Source of the DNA: Hadesarchaea archaeon
Lineage (GTDB): Archaea; Hadarchaeota; Hadarchaeia; Hadarchaeales; Hadarchaeaceae
Direction of reading: 5' to 3'
Assembly (NCBI GenBank): GCA_029880065.1
Contig: JAOUPD010000002.1
Span: forward strand, 1 to 32,640
DNA: 32,640 nucleotides
Shown: positions 18,499 through 32,640 of the stretch, piece after piece
Layout: each line of letters opens with the position of its first letter
Position numbering within the stretch: the stretch's first letter is position 1
The notes under the pieces: generated by a model
Seen by the model: only the letters and a program-made list of their open reading frames with translations
Databases searched by the model: none
Told to the model about the DNA's origin: nothing
Translations under genes and position numbers: made by a program

Positions 18499-18689
18499 TA
18501 GCGGGGAGTGGAAATTCCGAGAGAGGTTTTACGCCACTCTCTCTTGAACCACTGACCTCCGGGTCTCGCAGGAGCGCCAAACTCACGGCTTGACGCCTTA
18601 TGAGCTTCGCCCGTGGTTTTCCACGACCGGCGGGCACTCCATGCTGCCGTAGGGGCAGAGTAGTTTTCCTACTGCTGCTCTACCCCGCT
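18499..18689 (-). tRNA. Initiator tRNA-Met (CAU) gene interrupted by four introns (exons 10+22+7+22+14 nt; introns 31, 21, 34, 30 nt)
   Basis: Read on the minus strand. Exons are 18689-18680, 18648-18627, 18605-18599, 18564-18543 and 18512-18499. Joined, they give AGCGGGGTAGGGCAGCATGGAGTGCCCGCCGGGCTCATAACCCGGAGGTCAGTGGTTCAAGTCCACTCCCCGCTA. This 75-nt product folds as a perfect cloverleaf. The acceptor stem is AGCGGGG/CCCCGCT, the D stem is GGGC/GCCC with GG in the loop, and the anticodon stem is CCGGG/CCCGG. The anticodon loop is CTCATAA, the T arm is AGTGG-TTCAAGT-CCACT, and the discriminator is A. Archaeal initiator features are the A1:U72 pair and G29-31:C39-41. Every junction falls after the 2nd nucleotide of a 3-nt bulge in a bulge-helix-bulge-like fold (details in findings). 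Confidence 0.8.
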
Positions 18690-18710
18690 GCAGGTAGCTA
18701 CCCCGCTACC
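18680..18710 (-). repeat. Direct duplication of tRNA positions 1-10 (AGCGGGGTAG) in the 5' leader
   Basis: The minus strand reads GGT-AGCGGGGTAG-CTACCTGC-AGCGGGGTAG. The copies lie at 18707-18698 and 18689-18680. The leader sequence GGTAGCGGGG (18710-18701) is a perfect complement of the 3' end CCCCGCTACC (18506-18497). Confidence 0.9.
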
Positions 18711-23399: not shown

Positions 23400-23495
23400 A
23401 GCCGGGGGCCGGATTTGAACCGGCGAATAGCGGGTCCCAACGGAAAAATTTTTTCCTCTGCAGCCCGCCGCCTTTCCGGACTAGGCTACCCCGGC
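23400..23495 (-). tRNA. tRNA-Cys (GCA) with a 22-nt intron at the canonical 37/38 position
   Basis: On the minus strand the gene reads GCCGGGG-TA-GCCT-AGTCCGGAA-AGGC-G-GCGGG-CTGCAG, then [AGGAAAAAATTTTTCCGTTGGG], then A-CCCGC-TATTC-GCCGG-TTCAAAT-CCGGC-CCCCGGC-T. All four stems pair. The U73 discriminator is the classical Cys identity element. The intron (23457-23436) sits in a relaxed BHB with bulges AG|A and GG|A, an inner helix GGAAA/TTTCC, and a central helix CUGC/GUUG carrying one U-U mismatch. No CCA is encoded. Confidence 0.9.
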
Positions 23496-25817: not shown

Positions 25818-25895
25818 TGGTGGGCCCGGAGGGATTCGAACCCTCGACCTTCCGGTTATCAGCCGAACGCGCTAACCAATCTGCGCCACGGGCCC
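25818..25895 (-). tRNA. tRNA-Ile (GAU), intron-less, genomically encoded CCA
   Basis: The minus strand reads GGGCCCG-TG-GCGC-AGATTGGTTA-GCGC-G-TTCGG-CTGATAA-CCGGA-AGGTC-GAGGG-TTCGAAT-CCCTC-CGGGCCC-A-CCA. All stems pair. Confidence 0.95.
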
Positions 25896-25930: not shown

Positions 25931-26164
25931 CTGAGATAATCTGATTTAATTCGCTTTCCTCCTATTTTGCTTGCCGTCAAGTTAGGCAGAATGAAATCTA
26001 TATGAAAATCAGTGGGTGGTTTTTTGAGTTACTTGCTTACAAGCTTAGAAGAACCAAATAATTACGAAAAGATAGACCATCAGAAATCCATTCTTTATCA
26101 ACCATAAACATAAGAAGGCTATAAATACTACTAATAGTTGTAAAACAATGTGGAGGTATTAGAT

Positions 26165-26256
26165 GGGCGAAGCGGGGACGGGTTTATTATTATCCTGTCG
26201 GAAGGTTTGCTCCTCCTTTCCTTCCGTTAAACACCTAGGCTCGCCCCCGCGTCACT
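26165..26256. other. GC-rich imperfect long hairpin inside the AT-rich spacer (candidate small structured RNA; strand unresolved)
   Basis: GAAGCGGGGACGGG (26169-26182) pairs with CTCGCCCCCGCGTC (26240-26253). Twelve of the 14 positions pair, including one G-U. The inner helix is CGGAAGG (26199-26205) paired with CCTTCCG (26220-26226). The 14-nt apical loop is TTTGCTCCTCCTTT. Confidence 0.25.
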
Positions 26257-26420
26257 TACATCAAACAAATCAGTGATAGCAATGACGCCTATGTTTATAA
26301 GTTTTAAGCAGGAGATAAAAGCTTGTCCCGGCCGGCGATTGCTACTTAAGTGCCAGTATCAAGGGAAATGAAGAAATGGAAATATTGCTCATTTTGAGGC
26401 CAGTCTGATGAGGGGATAAA

Positions 26421-28772
26421 ATGAAATATGGAAGTTTTAGTGAGGATGGAAGAGAGTTTATAATAACCACTCCCCGCTTACCAAACCCTTGGATTAATTA
26501 TCTTTACAATGAAAAATATTGCGCTATCGTTTCCCATACTGGCGGAGGATACAGTTTTGAACAGGATTGTAGAACCAAAAGAATCACTGCTTGGAATCCT
26601 AACAATTTATTCACCGACAGACCGGGGAGATATGTCTTTTTGAGAGACAATGAAAGTGGCAAATATTGGTCGATAAACTGGCAACCTATCTGTCCAAAAA
26701 AACAAAATTTTCAGTGTATTCATGGCTTAGGTTATACTATAATTTCATCGACAGTTAACAAAATTAGTGGGCAGATCACTTATTTTGTCCCACTAAAAGA
26801 TAGTTTGGAAATTTGGAAAATAAGAATTTCAAACAGAGATAGGAAAAAAAGAAAATTTGGTTTATTTCCTGTTGTGGAGCTAATCATCAATGATTTCCAA
26901 TTGGAGATGTTATTCAAAAATATTTTTGCCATGTATAACAAAGCATGGTTCGATAGAGAATTACAGGCGATTATTTCAGCGAAAAATACTTGGGGCTGGA
27001 CTGGAATTTACCCTTACCGAACATATTTTGGGGCAAATTTTAAAGTTCACGGGTGGGAAACGAGAAGAGAATCTTTTTACGGTGCACCCCTCCTGCTATC
27101 AAACCCCAGAGCGATTGTAGAAGGCGAATGTACTAACACCGACAATTTAGGAGAAAATATGGTCTCAGCACTTCAGCACAACTTTGTTATTAAACCGAAG
27201 GAGGAGAAAGAATTTGTAATTTTACTTATTCACGCAAAAAAAAGGCAATCAGCGAAAAATCTTCTAACAAAATATAGAAGTTTGTCAAATGTCGATAACG
27301 CGCTTAAAGAGGTAAAACATTTTTGGGATAGGGTTGTTGAGAGAGTAAAGATAAAAACGCCAGATGAAGATTTCAATCGCATGATTAACATCTGGAGTAA
27401 ATACCAACTTTATACAACAAATGCGTGGAGTCGATCCCCATCCTATTACCATGAGGGAACGGGGGGCCGGGGTTATCGAGATTCTTGCCAAGATGCCGAA
27501 GGAATACTCTCTCTGGATGCTGAATACGCCAAAAATAAACTTCGCAAAATTGCCACACTTCACGCTAAAGACGGGCACTGTGCTCCTGGCTGGTCAGACG
27601 ATTACGGCCCTTTTACAGATACACCAAGAGCGGACCATCCTGTTTGGTTCACATACGCATTAGCAGCATATGTAAGAGAAACAGGTAATATCAACTTTTT
27701 GAATGAAAGTGCAAAATGGCTTGACGGTGGAGAGGGGACTATTTTTGAGCATTGTTTAGCAAACATTGACTATCTTTGGAGACACCGAGGACAGCACGGA
27801 TTACCGTTAATTGGCATTGCTGATTGGAACGATGCCATCGATAGCGCTGGAGATGAAGGTAGGGGCGAGAGTGTCTGGCTAGGTATCGCCTTTCATAGAA
27901 CGCTCCTCCACGCTGCAAGGTTAGCCAAAATTCTAGGTAAAGATGATATCGAGAAAGATTTGACCCACAAGGCAGACAAAATTAGAAAAATTGTAAATAG
28001 CTCTACAGGTTGGAATGGAAAATGGTTTAAAGCAGGGTACACTGACGAGGGGAACCCTTTCGGTTCTAAGGAAAATAAACAGGGTAAAATACACATTAAT
28101 CCTCAAATATGGACAATTCTGTCAGAAGTGTGTAACCTTGATAGACAAAAACAAGTTATGGCCATGGTCGACAAATATTGTGATAGCCAACATGGGCCTA
28201 TATTACTTGCACCACCATACACAAAAATTGATTTATCAATAGGAAGAATAACGAAATTCGCCCCAGGTATAAAGGAAAATGCGGCGATATTCTGCCATGC
28301 TGTCGCATTTAAAATAGTCGCCGACTGTATACTTGGCCGAGGTGATAAAGCTTATGATTCTTTTTGTAAAATAAATCCGATGAAACAGGATTTAAATCTT
28401 TACAAAGCGGAACCTTACGTTTTCGCCGAATATTTAGTTGGACATTCACATCCCTATCGTTTTGGTGAGGGTGCCTATACTTGGCTTACTGGAGCAGCAG
28501 CGTGGATGTACCTTGCCGCCACGGAATGGATACTTGGTGCAAGAAGGGATTTTGATGGATTAAAAATAGATCCGTGTATACCTAAGCATTGGAAGAAATG
28601 CCGAATAGAAAGACCGTTTAGAAACGCGATTTACAGAATAGAAATTAAAAATCCCAATTATGTAGAAAAAGGTGTTAAAGAGATATATGTCGACGATGAA
28701 AAAATAAATAGCGATATAATCAAACCGCATAGCGACGGTAAAGTTCACGAAGTGAAAGTCATAATGGGATAG
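26421..28772 (+). CDS. GH94-family glycoside phosphorylase (cellobiose / chitobiose / cellodextrin phosphorylase-like)
   Basis: 783 aa. The N-terminus is GSFSEDGREFIITTPRLPNPWINYL. It has GGRGYRDSCQD, the catalytic-Asp context IADWNDAI and IKENAAIFCHA. I recall these as the GH94 hallmarks (G.RD..QD, DWND, ENGxIF.H). No signal peptide is apparent. Confidence 0.85.
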   Translation: MKYGSFSEDGREFIITTPRLPNPWINYLYNEKYCAIVSHTGGGYSFEQDCRTKRITAWNPNNLFTDRPGRYVFLRDNESGKYWSINWQPICPKKQNFQCIHGLGYTIISSTVNKISGQITYFVPLKDSLEIWKIRISNRDRKKRKFGLFPVVELIINDFQLEMLFKNIFAMYNKAWFDRELQAIISAKNTWGWTGIYPYRTYFGANFKVHGWETRRESFYGAPLLLSNPRAIVEGECTNTDNLGENMVSALQHNFVIKPKEEKEFVILLIHAKKRQSAKNLLTKYRSLSNVDNALKEVKHFWDRVVERVKIKTPDEDFNRMINIWSKYQLYTTNAWSRSPSYYHEGTGGRGYRDSCQDAEGILSLDAEYAKNKLRKIATLHAKDGHCAPGWSDDYGPFTDTPRADHPVWFTYALAAYVRETGNINFLNESAKWLDGGEGTIFEHCLANIDYLWRHRGQHGLPLIGIADWNDAIDSAGDEGRGESVWLGIAFHRTLLHAARLAKILGKDDIEKDLTHKADKIRKIVNSSTGWNGKWFKAGYTDEGNPFGSKENKQGKIHINPQIWTILSEVCNLDRQKQVMAMVDKYCDSQHGPILLAPPYTKIDLSIGRITKFAPGIKENAAIFCHAVAFKIVADCILGRGDKAYDSFCKINPMKQDLNLYKAEPYVFAEYLVGHSHPYRFGEGAYTWLTGAAAWMYLAATEWILGARRDFDGLKIDPCIPKHWKKCRIERPFRNAIYRIEIKNPNYVEKGVKEIYVDDEKINSDIIKPHSDGKVHEVKVIMG

Positions 28773-28778
28773 ATTTTT

Positions 28779-31595
28779 ATGGACGCGGCCAAGTTGACAA
28801 ATTCTAAGAAAATTATTGGTCATAACTCTAAAAGCATGATAATAAAAGGCAAAAGAGTTATGCTTTTCGGCGGAGAACTTCACTATTTTAGAATACCTCA
28901 CGAACTTTGGGAAGACAGGCTCGTAAAAATGAAACGGGCGGGCTGTAATTTTGTTAGCACATACGTACCATGGAACTGGCATGAACCACGTGAAGGGCAG
29001 TATCGCTGGACAGACGATTGTGACCTTGGCTATTTTTTGAAATTGTGCAAAAAACATGGTCTATATGTTGTAATTAAACCCGGACCATACATTTGTGCCG
29101 AATGGGATTTTGGTGGATTTCCTGATTGGTTGTTATCAAGAAAAAAGAAATTGAAATTGCGGCTTCTAGATGATGAATATCTATCACTAGTGGAAAAATG
29201 GTTTAAAGCAATTTCTTCTGTCATTAAACCGTATTTGATTACTAATGGTGGCAATATAATTCTCTTCCAAATCGAAAATGAATACGATCATCTTATTAAA
29301 TTTGGCGATGTACCCATTTCAAAAGAATATGCACTAAAATACATTAGTAGACTCGTTGATATTGCAAGAGATGTTGGCATTGATGTGCCTCTATTTACTA
29401 ATGAAGGCGAATTTCTCAGAAGCACGGAAATTATCGATGCTCGTACTTTCTATCCTGATATTCCATGGCTTTGGTCACAAGAGTTTAATCATTTCGAGGA
29501 AAGAATAGAGAAATCAAAAATAGAACAACCTGATAAACCGATTTTGATTTTAGAATTGGAATCGGGATGGTTTGACCAGTTTGGGCAACCCAAGTGTGAA
29601 ATTCCTATCAACGTTCTGGAAACTTGTATGAGAAGTGTATTAGCACAGGGGGCCTCTCTTCTTAATGTCTACATGTTTGCTGGCGGGACAACTTGGCCTT
29701 ATTGGGGTTGCCGTGGAGATATTTACGATCTATTTCCTCCAGGTTATGGTATCCCTCCTTCATACGATTTTGGCATATCCCCAATTCGCGAATGGGGGGA
29801 ACTTAGTGAAAAGTACTACACATGCCATAAAATTTCTATGTTTTTGGAAAACTTTCAAGATCTTATAACAGAAACTGAAATCCAAAATGAAAATACCATT
29901 TCTATCAAATCAAGAGAAGCAAAAAAAACACGACTTTTGAAGAGAAAAAAAGCTGAAGTTAGAGATAACCCAGCAGATACTTTTGAAAAAATAAGAACTA
30001 TTTACAGGGCAGCGCCCCATGGTGGCCTTTTGTTCGTTCGCAATCTTGAGAAAAGTGATAGACATGTTTCCATCACGTTAACTCCACCATTTGAGAGGAA
30101 AAAGCTCAAAATACCAGTAAAAGGTGAATTGCAGGTATTGCCCTACTCAGCTGTTCTTCTTCCAGTTGATGTGAAAATTCCTAGCACAAATTTGACAATT
30201 GAGTATTCGACCTCTGAACTTTTGGCAGCAAAAAAGATAGGCAATTTTGATTACTTACTTCTTTACGGCAAAAGAAACCAAAAAGGTGAAACAGTTCTCA
30301 GAAATGTGCGTGCTCAAGCAGAAATAATAGAGGGCGAGGTTAAACAGTCCCTTGAAAATGATGTTTTGCAAATTCAGTACATCCATGATGGCATAAAGAT
30401 CGTTAAACTGGATTCACTGATAATAATTTTCTTGGATGACCACTACGCTGGCAGAACATGGATTGATAAGGATTTGCTCATGATTAGCGATTTTTATTTT
30501 GTTGAGAAAATAGAAAAATCTGATGGAGAACACAAAATACACATCCAGACCAAGCCCGACGTAAATACTCAGTCACATATTTTCTTACCTAAAGAGCCCA
30601 AGAATATCAAGCTTGAAAAGAAATCAATTAAATTTGATTTTGAGAAAAAAATAAACAGATGCAAGTTTGAGTACAAAGAAACCGGAAATAGTCCCATAAA
30701 GTTAAAGTGGCTTTCGCCTTGGAAATATGCCCTCGACGATGAGGAGTTACAACTCAATTACGATGATAACCAGTGGAAAGTTTTAGATAAACCAATTTCC
30801 TTGGAGCAAGCAGAAATCCTTGAGCATGGCTATATATGGTACAGGGCTAGATTCACGGTCCCAGATGAGTTAAAAAATGTAAAAATAAATGTGAATACCG
30901 GTGGTATTGACCGGGCCTACTTCTACCTAAATGGCAATTTGTTTTGGAGAGGGATCGGGGGGAGCTCTGTTAATGTAGACCCGCTTATCAGAAAAGGTGA
31001 AAATATTCTTGCGGTGAGATATTACAACTCTTTTCATCCAAAAGCCCATCCTCACGAAGGGATAATCCAAAAGTACAGTGGTTTACAATTCCCAATTCAA
31101 ATAGAAGGCGTAGTGAATGGAAAAAAGTGGACTGAACAAATAGAAAAGTCCAAGGTCAGAGCTGGATTAGGGGGCGATCTGAAGGGATTTCACGCTTTAG
31201 GATATGATGATTCAGATTGGGTAGAAATTCCTTCCGGAGAAAAATATGTATGTGCTGATGAAACAAAAGATATTGTTTGGTTTAGGAGAAAATTCTCTTA
31301 TGAAAAAGAAAAATCGTGGGGAGGTGCTGTAAAACTTCTCATACCCGCTGCATCTGAGCGATTTCTAATTTCTATTAACGGCAAATTTATTGGGGTGTAC
31401 GAATCAACGGGGCCACAGTTTGAATTTTACGTACCTGAAAGTGTTCTTAAAAAAGAAAATGTGTTAGTTTTACTCCTTGAAGGGCCCGGGTTTCACAAAA
31501 TATTTCAAGGTGTACCCAAGCAACCATACTTGGAAGAACCAATTTGGGGGACGTATTATAAAGCCAAGAGAGTTGAACTAGAAATAGTTTTGTAA
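28779..31595 (+). CDS. GH35-family glycosidase (beta-galactosidase / exo-beta-glucosaminidase-like) with C-terminal beta-sandwich domains
   Basis: It has GGELHYFRIPHELWEDRLVKMKRAGCNFVSTYVPWNWHEP, KPGPYICAEWDFGGFPDWL and QIENEY (the acid/base Glu context). Jelly-roll-like segments follow (GYIWYRARF, VWFRRKF). It starts 6 nt after the GH94 stop. No signal peptide is apparent. Confidence 0.85.
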   Translation: MDAAKLTNSKKIIGHNSKSMIIKGKRVMLFGGELHYFRIPHELWEDRLVKMKRAGCNFVSTYVPWNWHEPREGQYRWTDDCDLGYFLKLCKKHGLYVVIKPGPYICAEWDFGGFPDWLLSRKKKLKLRLLDDEYLSLVEKWFKAISSVIKPYLITNGGNIILFQIENEYDHLIKFGDVPISKEYALKYISRLVDIARDVGIDVPLFTNEGEFLRSTEIIDARTFYPDIPWLWSQEFNHFEERIEKSKIEQPDKPILILELESGWFDQFGQPKCEIPINVLETCMRSVLAQGASLLNVYMFAGGTTWPYWGCRGDIYDLFPPGYGIPPSYDFGISPIREWGELSEKYYTCHKISMFLENFQDLITETEIQNENTISIKSREAKKTRLLKRKKAEVRDNPADTFEKIRTIYRAAPHGGLLFVRNLEKSDRHVSITLTPPFERKKLKIPVKGELQVLPYSAVLLPVDVKIPSTNLTIEYSTSELLAAKKIGNFDYLLLYGKRNQKGETVLRNVRAQAEIIEGEVKQSLENDVLQIQYIHDGIKIVKLDSLIIIFLDDHYAGRTWIDKDLLMISDFYFVEKIEKSDGEHKIHIQTKPDVNTQSHIFLPKEPKNIKLEKKSIKFDFEKKINRCKFEYKETGNSPIKLKWLSPWKYALDDEELQLNYDDNQWKVLDKPISLEQAEILEHGYIWYRARFTVPDELKNVKINVNTGGIDRAYFYLNGNLFWRGIGGSSVNVDPLIRKGENILAVRYYNSFHPKAHPHEGIIQKYSGLQFPIQIEGVVNGKKWTEQIEKSKVRAGLGGDLKGFHALGYDDSDWVEIPSGEKYVCADETKDIVWFRRKFSYEKEKSWGGAVKLLIPAASERFLISINGKFIGVYESTGPQFEFYVPESVLKKENVLVLLLEGPGFHKIFQGVPKQPYLEEPIWGTYYKAKRVELEIVL

Positions 31596-31680
31596 AAAAC
31601 AAAAATAAACAAGTCCAGTCTTACTCATTTGCTCCCTCACTAAATACAAGATGCTTCTCGCCAGCCGTCCTTGACATTTC

Positions 31681-32640
31681 CTACGAATCACTTTCTTTGA
31701 AAATTCTATGTTTTACGTTCCCAATGATATCATTGTGATGAAATTCGACCAACTCTGAGTTTCTTCCTGCCCATACTCCTGCCTCTTTGTTGTTCTTTAT
31801 GATATTATACGATATAGCAGCGCTTGAGAATTTGTCCAAGCAGATTCCATTAAGGTTGCTCCGTTCTATGGCATTGTTTTTTATTATCGTCTTACGCGCA
31901 TTTTGAAGATAAATACCATGTCCCCTGTTCGGACGGTTTCCATTACCGCTTATCTTGTTGTTTTCTATCCTATTGTTATTACTGCCACGAATGCGAATTC
32001 CATCACTAGCATTGTCCTTTATTATATTCCCAGTTATGAGGTGATTGCTCCTGCCACCTCCAAAAATCACTATACCATCATTTTTGTTATTTATGAGTCT
32101 ATTGTTAATTATTTTAATGTTCTTAGCATTCTCAATCCGAATACCACCCTCCCATGCATTTGCATTACAGTTTTTAATGGTAAAACCCTCAATTATTACA
32201 TCATTGGATTCAACTCGAAATATGGCCTCCTCCATCTTTGCATCGAATATTGTCTTCTCTGGAAGCCCAGCGGATTTCAAGGTAACAGGTTTGTTCACCC
32301 TAATCGGAAATACCAGAAGTTCTGTATCGTAATATCCGGGCTTAACTCTGATCACGTCTCCACTACTTGCGTTGTCTATAGCATCCTGAATTGACAAAAA
32401 TGTTAGATCATTATTACCCATTATCCCATCATTATCCTTATCAATCCATACAAAAGGCCCTATAACTGAAAGTTTTTGTGCTTTCAGATCACCTATTGTA
32501 ACACTGTGAATTCCTTTGTTTTCAACGAATTTATAGGTAAAACTTATCTCTTTAGCTTCTTTACTATTCAGAGTAACTTCTTTCCAATCAGCTACTTTTT
32601 TGTCAACATAAAGTTTAACCTTCTCTTTTTTCTCAGATCG
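31681..32640 (-). CDS. Parallel beta-helix repeat (NosD/PbH1-like) surface protein, N-terminus outside the window
   Basis: The track ORF starts at M32421. My translation stays open upstream to nt 32640: ...RSEKKEKVKLYVDKKVADWKEVTLNSKEAKEISFTYKFVENKGIHSVTIGDLKAQKLSVIGPFVWIDKDNDGIMGNNDL.... That upstream part looks like an Ig/CARDB-like beta-sandwich. Downstream are repeated N-rich turns (IINNRLINNKNDGIVI, ITGNIIKDNASDGIRI, IENNKISGNGN, IKNNAIERSNLNGICL) typical of right-handed beta-helix repeats. Confidence 0.7.
   Translation of the reverse strand, partial: RSEKKEKVKLYVDKKVADWKEVTLNSKEAKEISFTYKFVENKGIHSVTIGDLKAQKLSVIGPFVWIDKDNDGIMGNNDLTFLSIQDAIDNASSGDVIRVKPGYYDTELLVFPIRVNKPVTLKSAGLPEKTIFDAKMEEAIFRVESNDVIIEGFTIKNCNANAWEGGIRIENAKNIKIINNRLINNKNDGIVIFGGGRSNHLITGNIIKDNASDGIRIRGSNNNRIENNKISGNGNRPNRGHGIYLQNARKTIIKNNAIERSNLNGICLDKFSSAAISYNIIKNNKEAGVWAGRNSELVEFHHNDIIGNVKHRIFKESDS

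Follow-up and report, generated by a model that had tools for sequence, protein, structure and literature searches.

A hidden initiator tRNA-Met gene with four predicted bulge-helix-bulge introns in Hadarchaeota

How can an archaeal genome carry its initiator tRNA in a block of DNA where standard tools see no tRNA at all? The question is raised by a 32,640-nt stretch from a Hadesarchaea archaeon (contig JAOUPD010000002.1; hereafter, the window), on whose minus strand a GC-rich block next to asd, the gene for aspartate-semialdehyde dehydrogenase (Asd), had been read without database searches as an initiator tRNA-Met gene split by four introns. Our analysis indicates that this locus is very probably a functional initiator tRNA-Met(CAU) gene with four short introns of the bulge-helix-bulge (BHB) type at tRNA positions 10/11, 30/31, 37/38, and 59/60 (Table 1). 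The window Asd shares 98% identity with the DG-33 protein of Hadesarchaea archaeon, which points to a source within the Hadarchaeota. The contig recurs in three independent assemblies (JGI, Logan, and ENA) with 100% identity over the 341-nt tRNA region, so the arrangement is not an assembly artefact. The block had also been described as free of open reading frames (ORFs), which is not strictly the case: a 53-aa ORF overlaps it, which we judged spurious.

Joined in their order along the minus strand, the five exons (10 + 22 + 7 + 22 + 14 = 75 nt) form a perfect cloverleaf that ARAGORN calls as tRNA-Met(cat), and the minimum free energy (MFE) structure obtained with RNAfold for the spliced sequence is the same cloverleaf (-36.2 kcal/mol). 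The product has a canonical 7-nt anticodon loop (CUCAUAA), the discriminator A73, and the pairs A1:U72 and G29-31:C39-41. These pairs are the signature of archaeal initiators, archaeal elongator Met and Ile2 tRNAs having G1:C72. A1:U72 is present in all seven distinct spliced ortholog sequences and G29G30G31:C39C40C41 is invariant; in the gene itself, intron 2 breaks this G:C run of the anticodon stem. With ARAGORN, the MFE fold, and syntenic relatives in agreement, the initiator identity and the 75-nt cloverleaf proposed by the sequence-only reading stand, and its 7-nt anticodon micro-exon is backed by comparative evidence from the relatives. Before splicing, the locus drew no ARAGORN call and no Rfam match, at the gathering threshold or at E ≤ 10, to the tRNA family or any other; silence of these two tools on unspliced DNA means that the gene is hidden, not that it is absent. 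As long as an essential initiator tRNA goes unseen by ARAGORN and Rfam, Hadarchaeota bins will seem to lack the gene, and completeness estimates based on tRNAs will be too low. Self-splicing group I or group II introns, whose ribozyme core takes up hundreds of nucleotides, were discarded as an explanation of the interruptions, which measure only 21-34 nt and have no Rfam match at E ≤ 10. A split or circularly permuted tRNA gene was likewise rejected, given that the five exons lie colinear on one strand within 191 nt.

Table 1. Parts of the initiator tRNA locus in the window, and intron sets of the gene across Hadarchaeota (ortholog coordinates refer to the named locus; ^ marks a splice site)
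Feature	Coordinates	Strand	Length (nt)	tRNA position(s)	Sequence and remarks
TATA-like box	18738-18733	-			TTTATC; putative archaeal promoter, 22 nt upstream of the first GGTAGC
5' leader	18710-18690	-	21		GGTAGCGGGGTAGCTACCTGC (transcript form GGUAGCGGGGUAGCUACCUGC); duplicate of tRNA positions 1-10, then GCTACC, a copy of the gene's 3' end
Exon 1	18689-18680	-	10	1-10	AGCGGGGTAG, listed also as AGCGGGGUAG; only copy intact through position 10 in L006, L008, L009, L012, L016, L017, and L019
Intron 1	18679-18649	-	31	10/11	Relaxed BHB; inner hairpin GCAG(C)AGUAG/CUACUCUGC
Exon 2	18648-18627	-	22	11-30	GGCAGCATGGAGTGCCCGCCGG; D arm and 5' strand of anticodon stem; 18640-18633 can pair with intron 3
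Intron 2	18626-18606	-	21	30/31	Central helix CGCC/GGCG (4/4); bulges GG^U and AA^G; inner helix CGUGG/CCACG; AAAA loop
Exon 3	18605-18599	-	7	31-37	GCTCATA (GCUCAUA); micro-exon including the CAU anticodon
Intron 3	18598-18565	-	34	37/38 (canonical)	Bulges UA^A and AG^A; central helix CUCA/UGCG (3/4; 4/4 in L011)
Exon 4	18564-18543	-	22	38-59	ACCCGGAGGTCAGTGGTTCAAG; 3' strand of anticodon stem, variable loop, 5' strand of T stem, most of T loop
Intron 4	18542-18513	-	30	59/60	Full hBHBh', with the T stem serving as outer helix; central helix UUCA/GGAA (3/4); bulges AG^A and UU^U; inner helix GAGAG/CUCUC
Exon 5	18512-18499	-	14	60-73	TCCACTCCCCGCTA; 3' strands of T and acceptor stems, discriminator A73; followed by CC (18498-18497), then T
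Introns of L013				59/60 only	
Introns of L008				10/11 only	
Introns of L019				10/11, D loop	
Introns of L010				14/15, 59/60	
Introns of L009				10/11, 37/38, 59/60	Intron at 37/38 minimal (18 nt)
Introns of L012				10/11, 30/31, 37/38, 45/46	
Introns of window, L004-L007, and L016				10/11, 30/31, 37/38, 59/60	
Introns of L017 (Candidatus Hadarchaeum yellowstonense YNP_45)	12420-12080	-		10/11, 30/31, 37/38, 45/46, 59/60	
Introns of L011 (Hodarchaeaceae)	12120-11800	-		14/15, 30/31, 37/38, 45/46, 59/60	
Introns of L014, L015, L018, and L021 (Hadarchaeum spp.)	12140-11770 (L021)	- (L021)		4/5, 30/31, 37/38, 45/46, 59/60	

The position of the junctions is settled by relatives of the window organism. 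Asd relatives were found in 19 Hadarchaeota genomes (69-98% identity to the window protein), and in 18 Hadarchaeota genomes the tRNA gene adjoins asd, with one to five introns in differing sets. The 16 orthologs that were parsed represent 15 distinct genomes, L001 being the window's own contig. After spliced alignment, the parses of L016 and L010 and that of the short 5' exon in L014, L018, and L021 were corrected by hand, and the L013 ortholog, missed by BLAST, was recovered by pattern search. Intron 1 is precisely absent in L010, L011, L013, and the L021 group, where the join reads GUAG^GGCAGC; intron 2 is precisely absent in L008, L009, L010, L013, and L019, intron 3 is absent in L008, L010, L013, and L019, and intron 4 is precisely absent in L008, L012, and L019. 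Every intron of the window is thus exactly missing in some relative, with the exons joining as predicted, which fixes all four junctions where they had been placed. This series also bears on the concern that the junctions were first picked by eye to yield a cloverleaf, a procedure with some freedom, such that the cloverleaf might be a chance assembly from a GC-rich non-coding block, or the block might encode a different structured RNA. We give such a reading a vanishingly small probability. The same exons are contiguous in relatives, and the presence and absence of introns effectively refutes it; moreover, the one-intron ortholog of L008 passes the Rfam tRNA gathering score (31.8 bits), covariation backs the helices of both the tRNA and the introns, and no other Rfam family matches at E ≤ 10.

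Across the phylum, insertion occurs at eight sites (4/5, 10/11, 14/15, the D loop, 30/31, 37/38, 45/46, and 59/60). Alleles with five introns are found in YNP_45, four other Hadarchaeum genomes, and one Hodarchaeaceae genome, in three distinct arrangements. The gene therefore offers a natural allelic series of one to five introns at eight sites that could be used to study the gain, loss, and retention of BHB introns.

The junctions were also scored for BHB geometry in a strict register, pairing the four exon nucleotides that precede the last two of the exon with the four intron nucleotides that precede the last two of the intron. At the register defined by the cloverleaf, at least 3/4 central pairs form in all 58 intron instances listed for the 16 parsed orthologs. 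Random junction pairs in the window reach at least 3/4 central pairs in 15% of cases, and in 0.3% of cases combine this with an inner helix of at least 4 bp; introns 1, 2, and 4 (three of the four in the window) show this combination at junctions that the cloverleaf had already set independently. The bulges and central helices of the sequence-only reading were reproduced for introns 2, 3, and 4, as were its inner helices for introns 2 and 4, both of which are near-textbook. Its general statement, that each junction lies after the second nucleotide of a 3-nt bulge, holds for these three introns and has to be relaxed for intron 1, whose central helix in the strict register is GGGU/CCCU (3/4). 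With a 4-nt 5' bulge (UAG^A), this helix becomes GGGG/CCCU in the window, and it is paired 4/4 as GGGG/CCCY in all ten orthologs carrying intron 1; the outer helix sets leader GC and G2C3 against G12C13 and G15C16. A shifted intron 1 junction (UAGAG^...CUACGG^), which would yield a GUAG/CUAC central helix, was rejected because it would place an A at position 11, unable to pair with C24, and because the sequence of intron-less alleles is GUAGGGCAGC.

Comparison with the relatives extends this picture to the other three introns. The register of intron 2 is the best of 81 shifted registers tested, and L011 has a compensatory inner helix (CGCAU/AUGCG) in this intron. All relatives carrying intron 3 show 94-100% identity over it, apart from L011 (62%), the Asd proteins of those genomes being 71-98% identical to that of the window. 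The hBHBh' structure of intron 4 is paired in 92.6% of cells across 12 distinct orthologs, with two-sided compensatory change at 10/17 pairs, a signal that collapses in controls with slid partners; L017, L011, and the L021 group have a complete central helix (4/4) here. The inner hairpins of introns 1, 2, and 4 (18672-18656, 18625-18611, and 18541-18519) have similar A-rich loops (GGAAAAC, GGAAAACC, and GUAAAACC, respectively), a likeness that corresponds to repeat families D2 and D5 and that could reflect either a common origin or a preferred loop. A box C/D guide RNA within intron 3 was also considered and set aside, since no convincing C/D boxes were seen by eye (no scan was run) and 34 nt is too short.

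Is the gene still in use? Judged by sequence comparison, its exons are under purifying selection. The mature tRNA is 88-100% identical to that of the window across orthologs, the flanks falling to ~50% in more distant genomes, and none of the 18 genomes carries a disabling change. In the seven distinct spliced sequences, 100% of cloverleaf cells are paired (33-56% in controls with slid partners), and three pairs of the T stem, whose two strands flank intron 4, vary on both sides (AGUGG/CCACU, CCAGG/CCUGG, GCUGG/CCAGC, GGUGG/CCACC, and CGAGG/CCUCG). The locus could nevertheless be a decaying or non-functional relic if initiation used another, intron-less initiator tRNA gene elsewhere; the search for a second copy covered only the window and the fetched loci, standard tools make no call at the locus, and intron 1 is non-canonical. 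Such decay is very improbable for exons that stay this similar and fully pairable while Asd diverges to 71% identity, whose T-stem changes are compensatory, and whose introns keep their structure by covariation. An intron-less anticodon arm (GGGCTCATAACCC, one mismatch allowed) occurs nowhere else in the 32.6-kb window, and in the fetched Hadarchaeota loci it occurs only at the syntenic gene. Searched for metagenome-wide, the exon 4-exon 5 junction of the spliced T arm gave four hits, with no intron-less Hadarchaeota paralogue or transcript among them. These four (L026-L029) are low-GC contigs (27-32%) from unrelated organisms, in which a tRNA-Met happens to be identical to the spliced window tRNA over the T arm and the 3' strand of the acceptor; this coincidence indicates no kinship to the window organism.

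The 5' end of the gene requires separate weighing. The sequence AGCGGGGTAG occurs twice in the window, at 18707-18698 and at 18689-18680, a duplication on which the sequence-only reading was silent, and the leader repeats make up direct repeat D3 and inverted repeat I3. The leader may fold on itself (GGUAGC/GCUACC) or form a 10-bp helix with the 3' end of the gene (CCCCGCUACC, 18507-18498). The element is kept in all orthologs that carry the 10/11 intron, and TTTAT[C/A] or TTAAAG lies ~22 nt from GGTAGC in all orthologs, its distance to the first copy being constant. In L014, L015, L018, and L021, the first copy provides the sole available 5' exon, AGCG, whose splice site at 4/5 has a perfect GUAG/CUAC central helix. 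The acceptor-stem intron of these Hadarchaeum genomes is 36-37 nt long and joins AGCG to GGGUAGGGC; it seems to hold a degenerate second copy, AGCGAGCCUAG.

The upstream copy (18707-18698) might accordingly be the true 5' exon in the window as well, in which case intron 1 would measure 49 nt (18697-18649), or an extra, fifth intron of 18 nt would lie between the copies. The two copies are identical in the window and receive equal scores from the spliced aligner, in the MFE structure of the whole precursor the first copy and the 3' end form a 10-bp helix, and the single-copy L010 and L011 have GGT-AGCGGGG at the fixed distance from the promoter-like box, to which can be added the four Hadarchaeum genomes that must use the first copy. 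We nonetheless regard an upstream 5' exon as improbable. The first copy is not intact past position 6-7 in L008, L009, L012, L016, L017, and L019 (e.g. AGCGGGGAAG and AGCGGGTGAA), which makes the second copy the 5' exon there, and in L006 the first copy carries C3>T; in these genomes U8-A9-G10 is available only from the second. By our own reading (no scripted score), the 18-nt element has no register with a BHB central helix, and it is the second copy rather than the first that borders the inner helix GCAG/CUGC. An archaeal RNase P RNA (RF00373, 202.5 bits) is encoded in L009 (126-412, plus strand), about 10 kb from the initiator tRNA gene; its presence in the phylum makes ordinary leader removal plausible, and straightforward for a 21-nt leader. 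The second copy (18689-18680) is thus the better-supported 5' exon, and the leader may owe its layout to tandem duplication and subsequent loss of an internal part of the upstream copy.

Introns 2 and 3 appear to be linked through the fold of the precursor, for which the single-sequence MFE structure and RNAalifold on nine distinct orthologs agree on a three-way junction. In its first arm, P1, exon 2 (GGAGUGCC, 18640-18633) pairs with intron 3 (GGCGCUCC, 18578-18571); the second is the intron 2 hairpin with a 3-nt 5' bulge, and in the third the micro-exon CUCAU (18604-18600) pairs with intron 3 GUGAG (18586-18582). Variants keep the micro-exon hairpin, with AUGAG in L007, GUGGG in L006, L014, and L015, and UAUGGG facing CUCAUA in L011, where GGCGCUC is the sole block of intron 3 to survive in an otherwise diverged sequence. 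A long intron 3 occurs only where intron 2 is also present, the intron 3 of L009, which lacks intron 2, being minimal. In every genome that has both except L011, introns 2 and 3 are 86-100% identical (Asd 71-98% identical to that of the window), a near-invariance across the phylum that introns 1 and 4 do not share. We infer from the modelled fold that intron 3 may help to present intron 2 for cleavage. The outer helix of intron 3 is the anticodon stem, which can form only after intron 2 has been removed, so the order of removal is probably constrained. If GGCGCUCC supplies the outer helix of intron 2, the two introns would be expected to co-evolve and to be removed in an obligate order.

Several observations weigh against a functional gene with these four introns and this 5' exon. 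Intron 1 departs from the strict 3-nt/4-bp/3-nt BHB in requiring a 5' bulge of 4 nt, and the helix favoured by RNAalifold runs uninterrupted through its 5' splice site; the junction is nevertheless fixed by the intron-less alleles. Intron 3 combines only 3/4 central pairs with a poor inner helix, and sequence variation gives better support to a competing pairing of the anticodon loop with a segment inside this intron. With positions 1-10 duplicated upstream, the exact 5' exon of the window is formally ambiguous. Finally, the evidence is at the level of DNA sequence, and the search for a second initiator tRNA gene extended over the window and the fetched Hadarchaeota loci.

We propose that expression of the four-intron gene would proceed as follows. 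Transcription would begin about 22-25 nt past the TTTATC box, at or close to GGUAGC (18710). The archaeal tRNA splicing endonuclease, EndA, would cut in the bulges at the eight exon-intron boundaries, intron 2 being presented in a precursor-specific three-way junction whose outer helix is formed by exon 2 and intron 3. An RtcB-type ligase would join the five exons, including the 7-nt anticodon micro-exon. RNase P would take off the 21-nt leader, and the 3' end would be trimmed and completed to CCA, in no implied order relative to splicing, to give a 75-nt tRNA with A1:U72 and G29-31:C39-41. No EndA gene turned up in the window, where no search aimed at EndA was made.

How unusual is such a gene? 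Four introns had been suggested to lie at or beyond the known extreme. Three is indeed the maximum usually stated, as in the tRNAscan-SE 2.0 paper, which reports archaeal tRNA genes with up to three introns (PMC8450103), but tRNAs with four introns have already been tabulated in Asgard archaea by Valentin-Alvarado et al. (2024): Arg-TCT and Ile2-CAT (tRNAscan-SE) and Leu-GAG (R2DT) in Freyarchaeia, and Trp (R2DT) in Atabeyarchaeia (PMC11291895, Supplementary Data 4). The initiator tRNA of Atabeyarchaeia/Freyarchaeia has three introns in the same table (PMC11291895, Supplementary Data 4). With five introns in other Hadarchaeota, the window gene is not even the extreme of its own phylum. Thermoproteales (Pyrobaculum, Thermofilum, Caldivirga, and Vulcanisaeta) likewise place short BHB introns at canonical and non-canonical positions of one gene, include relaxed HBh' and hBH forms, and have some BHB motifs that form only after a neighbouring intron has left (PMC8450103). 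They differ in belonging to the Thermoproteota, with a stated maximum of three introns (four here and five in relatives), and in having an (alpha-beta)2 EndA, whereas an alpha4 enzyme with an L3 loop has been reported for Hadesarchaea (PMC5829648).

The Atabeyarchaeia/Freyarchaeia resemble the Hadarchaeota in their highly disrupted tRNA genes, four-intron genes among them (PMC11291895). They represent a different phylum, however, and their table tops at four introns where the Hadarchaeota initiator reaches five; moreover, predictions there come from single genomes, whereas a phylum-wide presence/absence series is available here. For the Hadarchaeota themselves, Kaneta et al. (2018) linked the L3-loop alpha4 EndA of Hadesarchaea (YNP_N21) to increased tRNA gene disruption; the available portion of this text deals in proportions only, and we found in it neither an initiator tRNA nor the number or positions of introns in individual genes (PMC5829648). 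Outside the archaea, nuclear tRNA genes of Cyanidioschyzon merolae can contain as many as three BHB-like introns, with sites in the D arm, at 37/38, and in the T loop, and reverse transcription PCR shows that these are removed in order (PMC3728597). This alga is a eukaryote with at most three introns per gene, and some of its genes are circularly permuted, unlike the colinear gene of the window.

Multi-intron BHB tRNA genes, four-intron Asgard tRNAs, and tRNA disruption in Hadesarchaea are hence already known. Relative to the literature searched, the five-intron alleles, the eight sites in one gene, the conserved fold of introns 2 and 3, and the partial 5'-end duplicate in the leader are new. 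Neither a five-intron tRNA gene nor the Hadarchaeota initiator gene turned up in our literature search, a result that is limited to the library searched and is no proof of novelty. We hypothesize, tentatively and with more doubt than confidence, that the Hadarchaeota initiator is the most fragmented colinear tRNA gene described, with up to five BHB introns at eight sites, that it is spliced cooperatively via the helix of GGCGCUCC with exon 2 and with the micro-exon held on a hairpin of its own, and that the leader mini-copy serves as an alternative 5' exon, representing an intermediate stage in the origin of an acceptor-stem intron. The locus extends heavy tRNA fragmentation, at four or five introns per gene, beyond Thermoproteales and Asgard archaea to the Hadarchaeota. 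Two of its introns are seemingly interdependent in sequence and one exon is only 7 nt long, and the gene would provide a demanding test of the substrate range of the L3-loop alpha4 splicing endonuclease. The phylum-wide picture of five-intron alleles, eight sites, coupled introns, and a leader mini-copy is of greater interest than the single locus.

Other tRNA genes in the window are less fragmented. A second intron-containing tRNA lies at 23400-23495 on the minus strand (Rfam match of 54.1 bits, no ARAGORN call); from its sequence, we read it as a putative tRNA-Cys(GCA) whose anticodon loop is interrupted by a canonical intron of about 20-25 nt. A plain tRNA-Ile(GAU) was placed on the same strand at 25821-25895 by Rfam and at 25818-25895 by ARAGORN. 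No further hidden multi-intron tRNAs were evident in the GC-rich intergenic blocks that were checked. Over the last ~6 kb (26001-32000), the G+C content falls from about 50% to 36-42%, and this end of the window contains two long ORFs, one at 26421-28772 with glycoside hydrolase family 94 domains and the other at 28779-31595; the region may be recently acquired DNA.

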